A DNA stretch of 64,000 bases from Dictyostelium discoideum (GCA_000004695.1 CM000152.2:1952001-2016000); one strand, 5' to 3'; positions 40,860 to 41,390 are shown, counted from the first letter of the stretch. Translations and numbers: made by a program. Notes: generated by a model from the letters alone, not told the origin.

Positions 40860-41246
40860 ATTGTAATTTACAGATTTCCATTTATTTATTTATTTATTTA
40901 TTTGTTTTATCTTATTTTATTTTTAAATAAAAAAAAACTTTTTTTTTCTTTTTTTTTTTTTTTTTCCAGGTTTTTATTTTATTCTATTTTTAGCAAAGAT
41001 ATTAAAAATCCCAATTGATGGACAATTTTTTGTTTGTTGGTTGGTTACTTTTTTTAAACTATTGTTATGGTTATTATAACCATTTTTATAGTCATTGATA
41101 TTATTTTTATTATTATCGTTATTACCATAAAACTACCATATGGCCTATTATTTCTATTATTACATGGAACGATTTCTTCAGAATGTTCATAATCTTCACC
41201 AAATTCAATTGAGTCATCTTCATAAATTTGATTATTATTATTATTA

Positions 41247-41298
<52 letters not shown>

Positions 41299-41390
41299 AC
41301 TACCCTTTGAATAAGATAATGATGATAGTATACTTGAATTATCTTTTTCCATAACATTATCAACTAAACTATTAATTGATTTGTTTTATT
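40860..41390. repeat. Truncated, internally deleted duplicate of the 3' end of the gene at 43959..46148 and its 3' flank (gene-fragment pseudogene)
   Basis: >90% identity of 41130..41240 with 44105..44215 and 41295..41385 with 44505..44600. The flank 40968..41080 resembles 43925..44050. Confidence 0.75.

Follow-up and report, generated by a model that had tools for sequence, protein, structure and literature searches.

A probable non-functional, DNA-level partial duplicate of the 3′ end of an N/Q-rich protein gene in an intergenic spacer of Dictyostelium discoideum

The window considered here (the whole stretch of 64,000 nucleotides of Dictyostelium discoideum DNA, with positions counted from its first letter) has a GC content of 10-30% and contains (AAT)n tracts and poly(A)/poly(T) spacers. 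It matches the chromosome-level record CM142509.1 (6.43 Mb, GCA_054883475.1) at 99.58% identity across 22 kb, and the annotation of GCA_054883475.1 was carried over by mapping to give the gene coordinates used throughout. The locus comprises three genes and a copied fragment of one of them, hereafter the parent:

36545..40433, minus strand: LRR and PLEKHM2-like PH-domain gene (1164 aa, with introns; Pfam and mapped annotation), the downstream neighbour of the fragment
40863..41383, minus strand: the whole fragment, a 5′-truncated and internally collapsed copy of 43856..44598 (alignment and BLAST)
41529..43220, minus strand: WD40-repeat gene (499 aa, with introns; Pfam and mapped annotation), lying between the parent and the fragment, and upstream of the latter in the minus-strand sense
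43959..46148, minus strand: the parent gene, a single-exon gene for a 729-aa N/Q-rich protein

Utp14, SNF5 and otubain-like genes are placed by the mapped annotation upstream of these three genes, and a query of the protein collection with the WD40 protein returned D. purpureum alone, at 55%. The fragment starts 145 bp downstream of the WD40 stop (41529) and ends 430 bp upstream of the LRR ATG (40433), thus filling 48% of the 1095-bp spacer between these two landmarks, which corresponds to the 5′ intergenic region of the LRR gene. No gene model is present at the fragment site in either of the two independently annotated assemblies.

Other repeated or conserved sequences occur in the window. 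Direct copies at 26751-28424 and 29584-31304 (81% identity over 1.7 kb) correspond to a tandem duplication of adjacent Metallophos (PF00149) genes, encoding 396 and 381 aa in the L005 annotation, and masked self-BLAST detects an internal tandem repeat at 2969-3492, with copies ~80% identical at an offset of ~80-160 nt. In the spacer itself, a 47-nt element at 40795-40841 (ATGACAAAGTCATCGACTGTCTTAAAAATTTGAT), followed by an A-run, is 100% identical between the window and the corresponding locus of a diverged isolate (L002, presented below), while the spacer around it is indel-rich. This element, which opens with the palindrome ATGAC-AAA-GTCAT and is found ~360-400 bp before the LRR ATG, is a candidate promoter element.

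The fragment is a colinear, same-strand copy of the last ~211 codons of the parent (S519 to A729) together with ~100 nt of its 3′ flank. A preliminary description of the window had located a gene fragment at 40860-41390, between the start of the LRR gene and the end of the WD40 gene, which alignment bears out and refines to 40863..41383. BLASTN of 40600..41700 against the window without low-complexity filter returns two informative alignments, 40939-41260 against 43894-44237 (82.3% over 344 columns, E 9e-95) and 41231-41381 against 44433-44596 (86.0%, E 3e-49), the remaining matches being (ATT)n or poly(A) noise. An independent repeat search recovers an ungapped 134-nt pair at 95% identity with a spacing of 2977 bp. 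Block by block, identity reaches 101/104 in gapped alignment for 41127-41230 against 44104-44207 (the core), 43/44 for 41294-41337 against 44506-44549, 42/44 for 41338-41381 against 44553-44596, and 25/25 for 41051-41075 against 44024-44048, and falls to 54/64 for 40977-41040 against 43947-44010. The identity of over 90% initially proposed thus holds for the 5′ two thirds of the fragment (95-97%); it does not hold for the last ~47 codons and the 3′ flank (~85%, with many small indels), nor for the gapped alignment overall (82-86%).

Could such a resemblance arise by chance between low-complexity, N-rich or AT-rich sequences, or reflect an assembly artefact? The genome is 78-90% AT, (AAT)n is ubiquitous, and the fragment's own ATT tract aligns to dozens of positions in the window. 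However, the non-repetitive blocks are 95-100% identical to the parent and have no other match above 54%, the fragment-parent matches persist after DUST masking, where they still count among the top non-self alignments of the 64 kb, and the fragment is present in three independent assemblies. When the 104-nt core is compared without gaps to all positions on both strands of the window, it scores 101 at 44104 and at most 56/104 elsewhere (background 32.4 +/- 5.3), which indicates that the similarity is not an AAT-repeat effect; a resemblance limited to simple AAT repeats, which the preliminary description had named as the outcome that would overturn it, is not what is found. As another assembly from the same lineage also contains this sequence, at 100% identity, the fragment does not result from an assembly error. 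Chance or artefact, whose probability is negligible, is already refuted as an explanation.

The fragment can be divided into successive pieces, to which two open reading frames should be added:

41294..41383, minus strand: 5′ block, copy of 44506..44597 (S519-I548, SINSLIDNVMKKDNNSNILSSLSYSKGSL), with 43/44 and 42/44 identities
41231..41293, minus strand: once-interrupted (ATT)21 tract, to which 44208..44505 (298 nt, residues ~549-647) has collapsed
41127..41230, minus strand: core, copy of 44104..44207 (Q648-I682, QIYEDDSIEFGEDYEHSEEIVPCNNRNNRPYG) in a second reading frame, with 101/104 identities
40990..41126, minus strand: tail, copy at ~85% identity of the final ~47 parental codons (43959..44103), lying in a third frame
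40863..40989, minus strand: 3′ flank copy, a degenerate T-rich copy of ~100 nt (43856..43958), with a boundary uncertain by ~20 nt owing to low complexity
41122..41352, minus strand: spurious ORF of 76 aa (MEKDNSS...poly-I...), starting at the copy of the internal methionine M528 and then crossing the ATT tract and the core in the wrong frame
44027..44248, minus strand: spurious ORF of 73 aa, in an alternative frame nested in the parent CDS, which reads the duplicated core out of frame

Homology begins abruptly within codon Q518, after an A-rich spacer that precedes the breakpoint, and the 5′ block, translated in its own frame, reads SINSLVDNVMEKDNSSILSSLSYSKGSL (S519-L547 of the parent). The ATT tract that follows stands for a much longer stretch of the parent, since 298 nt (44208-44505) are represented by 63 nt in the fragment. 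The net loss of 235 nt agrees with the internal deletion announced in the preliminary description, is not a multiple of 3, and removes the LLDALAMTAASFEEL motif. It also changes the account of what was copied: the duplicated span covers the last ~211 codons rather than the last 110, of which ~112 codon-equivalents remain, ~99 codons having been reduced to the tract. The deletion endpoints are situated in TTTGA(A)TTATTATTA direct repeats. Because the missing stretch holds the LLDALAMTAASFEEL motif, which is conserved in Cavenderia and D. purpureum, the gap is a deletion in the copy, and not an insertion in the parent.

The core, translated in its frame, corresponds to Q648-G679 of the parent. 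Beyond it, the segment 40977-41126 aligns to 43947-44103 at ~85% with several small indels, those of the tail including a 13-nt insertion and a 13-nt deletion. The tail reads GNN..NHNNSLKKVTNQQTKNCPSIGIFNIFAKNRIK before its stop where the parent ends in ..NHNNSLKRKKPNQQTQNRPSMSIFNICA, and the parental stop is lost, the terminal ICA of the parent becoming IFAKNRIK followed by a new stop. In the flank copy, the landmarks TTTTTCCAG(G/A)TTTTTA and AATTTACAGA are common to the fragment and the parent flank, and only the fragment shows an (ATTT)n expansion; this flank copy is conserved in L002. At the junction between tail and core, both fragments (window, at 41120-41130, and L002) carry a single GGTAATTTTATT unit, while both parents (window, at 44079-44103, and L002) carry it as a 12-nt tandem duplication (two units, encoding GNFIGNFIG), which was either gained in the parent after copying or lost early in the copy.

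The surviving pieces therefore lie in three different minus-strand frames, with the parental TAA replaced, in line with the disrupted frame already suspected, and translation of the three minus-strand frames reveals neither the parental start codon nor the parental stop. Introns bridging the frame changes were considered and rejected, as no GTAAGT-type donor or acceptor is found between the pieces and the junction is the ATT tract. Both mirrored ORFs (41122..41352 and 44027..44248) are out-of-frame readings of the duplicated core, which accounts for them as the preliminary description had supposed. A scan of 40000..46500 with Rfam covariance models gave no match overlapping the fragment at E <= 1, and a sigma-70 promoter and intrinsic-terminator scan, inapplicable to a eukaryote, was disregarded. 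Exact look-ups of the parent, of the 76-aa ORF and of a neighbouring 274-aa protein returned nothing from the protein collection, which seemingly holds no D. discoideum reference proteins.

The 729-aa parent protein belongs to no Pfam family, and its conserved parts are an N-terminal domain (aa ~39-296) and C-terminal motifs. Orthologs are detected in D. purpureum, Cavenderia, Acytostelium and Synstelium by exhaustive HMMER search, and the N-terminal domain (window 45260-46030, residues ~39-296) forms an uncharacterised family across these Dictyostelia, without Pfam model. At aa ~165-300, weaker matches extend to ~40 other proteins, among them an IPT/TIG-domain protein of D. purpureum (P0025). 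When the whole parent is used as a protein query, poly-N/Q words swamp the search and Cavenderia fasciculata DFA_05308 is the sole match; a query stripped of its repeats gives no match. DFA_05308 is 34% identical to the parent over 258 aa in the N-terminal domain and shares with it the motifs LDALAMTA..FEEL and a C-terminal ..NI(I)C(A/S) immediately before the stop. The D. purpureum ortholog (L004 ORF 1404..3188) also has SVQSINSLID, LLDALALTATAFSEM, EIVP and a terminal ..ICI. With an intact 729-aa ORF and a dN/dS of 0.25 relative to its L002 ortholog, the parent appears, from these sequence comparisons, to be a functional protein-coding gene under purifying selection.

In L002 the exhaustive protein search finds P0003, a 118-aa protein 97% identical to the parent C-terminus, whose contig is that of the locus itself. 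The parent ortholog is there split at 9860-9880 into ORFs of 591 and 160 aa (annotated as 591 and 118 aa) by a frame shift at an A-run in the N-repeat (..NNNKM followed by a stop, then MNNKPT..). This is either a real, recent truncation removing the C-terminal region, or a homopolymer assembly error; the C-terminal part of the split ortholog still has a dN/dS of 0.28.

How did the fragment reach the WD40-LRR spacer? One route would be the insertion of a 5′-truncated reverse transcript of the parent mRNA by the machinery of a non-LTR retrotransposon (TRE5/TRE3-type), giving a processed pseudogene. The copy is indeed truncated at its 5′ end and continues beyond the stop codon for ~100 nt of 3′ flank, roughly as long as a 3′ UTR would be; the co-copied flank may even equal the 3′ UTR entirely, which fits an RNA intermediate too, and as the parent has no introns, their absence from the copy is no counter-argument. 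On the other hand, no A-rich tail follows the end of the homology on the sense strand, either in the window, which reads ...TCTGTAAATTACAATAAAAAATTATTATAATAATTTTTTTTTT, or in L002, and there is no convincing target-site duplication, since the only 7-mer found on both sides, TTTTATT, is expected by chance at 85-90% AT. Dictyostelium TRE elements target tRNA genes, and no tRNA gene is present in the 64-kb window, nor in L001 or L002. In a ~34-Mb genome, moreover, an insertion at random would fall less than 3 kb from the parent and on its strand with a probability of the order of 1e-4. A retrocopy is accordingly rated as highly improbable. The distance of 3 kb, the common strand, the tandem metallophosphatase paralogs, the lack of an A-run and the lack of a tRNA gene together favour a local origin at the DNA level, and the paralogs (81% over 1.7 kb) indicate that local duplication does operate in this region.

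Further information comes from L002 (GCA_054859355.1, labelled Dictyostelium discoideum). This assembly and related ones, named Dictyostelium discoideum or Dictyostelium cf. discoideum, were most probably produced in the ten-genome study by Holland et al. 2025 (PMC12745789). L002 is fully syntenic with the window (SNF5, Utp14, parent, WD40, LRR, CBS), with a DNA identity of ~89-90%, and comparison of three local genes gives a dS of 0.10-0.11 and a dN/dS of 0.07-0.25. A fragment is present at ~13066-13594, between the WD40 and LRR genes of the isolate, with a 5′ breakpoint and a large deletion identical to those of the window fragment and many derived substitutions in common with it, which indicates that the duplication and the main deletion predate the split between these two lineages. 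Between the two genomes, the fragment is 86.7% identical with 13 gap openings, similar to the flanking spacer (81-85%). The locus of D. purpureum keeps the parent-WD40 adjacency, and a different, convergent gene occurs 193 bp after WD40, so that it offers no empty site for comparison.

The tempo of decay can be followed in a four-way comparison of the window and L002 fragments and parents, over 355 non-repeat columns, in which variable sites fall into the following patterns:

Both fragments differ from both parents: 28 sites
Unique to one fragment: 7 + 18 sites
Unique to one parent: 3 + 6 sites
Grouping by genome: 0 sites

The 28 sites separating fragments from parents, against none grouping sequences by genome, leave no sign of independent origin or of recent conversion. 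Lineage-specific substitutions amount to 25 in the fragments versus 9 in the parents (binomial p = 0.009), and in the same columns the window-L002 divergence is 7.3% for the fragment versus 2.8% for the parent, i.e. the fragment evolves ~2.6-2.8x faster; its 7.3% is somewhat below dS (Poisson p 0.02-0.06). Among the indels that distinguish the two fragments, 5/8 are not multiples of 3; the L002 copy has a 1-nt deletion in the core, a 4-nt deletion and substitutions in the 5′ block, and repeat-length changes, and the 76-aa ORF meets a stop after 17 codons in L002 and is not conserved. The truncation within codon 518, the three frames, the net loss of 235 nt and the replaced stop show that the coding capacity of the fragment is destroyed, and the substitution counts, the divergence and the L002 indels that its constraint is relaxed relative to the parent. 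The initial proposal of a dead gene fragment is supported by the three frames, the lost stop, the motif missing from the copy, the additional L002 indels, the faster evolution and the absence of a called gene; its creation by segmental duplication is supported as a local event at the DNA level.

Divergence is nevertheless not uniform along the fragment. A max-chi-square scan places a breakpoint at ~41134, and the fragment-parent differences that predate the split number 24/173 on its 3′ side versus 4/182 on its 5′ side (permutation p = 0.0024; Fisher 4e-5). An N-rich stretch that aligns poorly contributes some of the 3′ excess, yet a divergence of ~8% persists over the last 85 nt, where the alignment is good. 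As the parent keeps an outgroup-like C-terminal motif, the excess changes lie on the side of the fragment. Changes posterior to the split (window versus L002) follow the same direction, 16/173 in the 3′ half versus 9/182 in the 5′ half, without being significant. Such a mosaic is not predicted by a single duplication followed by uniform neutral decay, and needs either later conversion, error-prone synthesis or local constraint. The cause regarded as most likely is a parent-to-fragment gene-conversion tract that predates the split, in preference to error-prone synthesis near one junction or to weak constraint on the 5′ half.

An alternative is that the fragment, or its 5′ half (41134..41383), has been kept similar to the parent for a function, as a cis-element of the LRR promoter, as part of a read-through 3′ UTR of WD40, or as an RNA (non-coding or antisense) that has sequence in common with the parent mRNA. 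The low pre-split divergence of the 5′ half (4/182 against 24/173) is compatible with this reading, as are the 9/182 sites changed in this half since the split, which is below the dS of ~0.10, and the persistence of the fragment in both lineages 430 bp upstream of the LRR ATG. Against it, there is no Rfam match and no conserved ORF, the L002 copy carries the core deletion, the 4-nt deletion and substitutions in the 5′ block and the changes in repeat length mentioned above, the post-split rate difference between the halves (16/173 versus 9/182) is not significant, and the identity of the fragment between genomes (86.7%, 13 gap openings) resembles that of the flanking spacer (81-85%). Moreover, one gene-conversion tract predating the split accounts for the mosaic without function. 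Retention for a function is therefore considered very unlikely.

No further copy of the fragment is found elsewhere in the 64-kb window, by masked BLAST or both-strand scan. Another isolate nevertheless contains a second, independent partial copy of the parent, at L003:10006-10281 (GCA_054859235.1, JBTAPI010000089.1, Dictyostelium cf. discoideum). This copy of ~270 nt is ~99% identical to codons ~60-157 of the parent (window 45971..45680), has sharp boundaries on both sides, and forms the first ~90 codons of an annotated 145-aa hypothetical protein (P0005, KAM9982967.1). The locus is non-syntenic, with genes for glutamine synthetase III (GSIII), an old-yellow-enzyme-type Oxidored_FMN protein and an aspartic protease, and the copy is situated 1.9 kb from a tRNA-Gly (8028-8099). 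With the 3′ fragment of the window and this internal 5′ piece, parts of the parent have thus been copied at least twice.

This internal piece of ~270 nt at an unlinked locus could suggest that gene fragments are captured and moved by a DNA transposon, in a Pack-MULE- or Helitron-like manner. However, the "inverted repeats" flanking the window fragment are poly(A)/poly(T) low complexity only, no transposon-like ORF or repeat is found in the vicinity, and the spacer on either side is ordinary and conserved in L002, making transposon capture scarcely plausible. The existence of at least two independent short copies (0.3-0.8 kb) could otherwise reflect a general, undescribed process of templated insertion in Dictyostelium, in which break repair or template switching would copy transcribed genes, a proposal that remains speculative and on balance unlikely. 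If it were true, the mosaic could be due to error-prone synthesis, or to exchanges of sequence that went on between fragment and parent.

Taken together, 40863..41383 is very probably a non-functional partial duplicate of the 3′ end of the parent, generated at the DNA level, i.e. a duplicated pseudogene fragment without a role as coding sequence, as far as can be judged from sequence comparison. A local duplication probably placed roughly the last ~211 codons of the parent and ~100 nt of its 3′ flank in the WD40-LRR spacer, at a distance of 2,977 bp downstream and on the same strand, and the copy never had the parental start codon or promoter. A net 235 nt was then lost between and within (AAT)n tracts, before the AX4/AX2-like lineage, to which the window probably belongs, split from the diverged isolate (dS ~0.10), the deletions, both bounded by (AAT)n, presumably occurring by slippage or recombination (unequal exchange) between (AAT)n direct repeats. 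After the split, the fragment drifted in both lineages, accumulating substitutions faster than the parent as well as frame-breaking indels.

Two routes may be envisaged for the duplication itself. The first would be a tandem duplication of ~3 kb, comprising the parent 3′ end, the spacer and the WD40 gene, with the second WD40 copy deleted afterwards. The second would be the one-step templated insertion of ~0.74 kb, by a replication template switch or by break repair copying a nearby template. Both routes yield an identical final structure. A comparison of 40434..40862 with 43221..43855 for traces of a larger tandem duplication gave only reverse-oriented poly(A)/poly(T) matches and is uninformative.

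The fragment as described here is an ordinary duplicated pseudogene fragment, of a well-known kind that will not surprise the specialist. It resembles the local duplicated (non-processed) pseudogenes of eukaryotes in its high homology to a nearby functional parent, with the same orientation and a distance in the kb range, as well as in its truncation at one end, co-copied non-coding flank, frameshifts, lost stop and evolution faster than that of the parent. It differs from them in its very small size (0.5 kb), in the fact that the intervening WD40 gene is not duplicated, so that simple tandem duplication would have to be followed by a deletion, and in the dominant role of (AAT)n microsatellite-mediated collapse, which is typical of Dictyostelium and unlike most genomes. 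Numerous partial fragments of tgr genes, probably pseudogenes under neutral drift, have been reported in Dictyostelium genomes (Holland et al. 2025, PMC12745789). These concern the same group of genomes and are likewise partial pseudogene fragments, but they derive from a large, rapidly duplicating family at a hypermutable locus, whereas the parent considered here is single-copy and conserved, in a syntenic and stable region with one local fragment only.

Processed pseudogenes of the LINE type share with the fragment the 5′ truncation and the inclusion of the stop codon region and of a 3′ flank of UTR length, but the fragment has no poly(A) and no convincing target-site duplication, lies near its parent and has no tRNA gene nearby. 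Templated insertions or filler DNA (FoSTeS/MMBIR-type) offer another parallel, with a short (0.3-0.8 kb), sharply bounded piece of nearby sequence placed in an intergenic spacer, another independent piece of the parent in a related isolate, and a cluster of changes near one end that could reflect error-prone synthesis; this is a resemblance only.

For genome annotation, these results mean that the stretch should be labelled as a pseudogene fragment and that the ORFs 41122..41352 and 44027..44248 are not genes. Together with the L003 copy, the fragment offers a basis for surveying the new Dictyostelium assemblies genome-wide for inserted gene fragments. Being common to two lineages separated by a dS of ~0.10, it could also serve as a local marker of the neutral rate, although full neutrality is not proven (its divergence of 7.3% is somewhat below dS). 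More generally, it represents a small and datable example of the way Dictyostelium erases duplicated coding DNA, with an early (AAT)n collapse of 235 nt, followed by substitutions and small indels near the synonymous rate.
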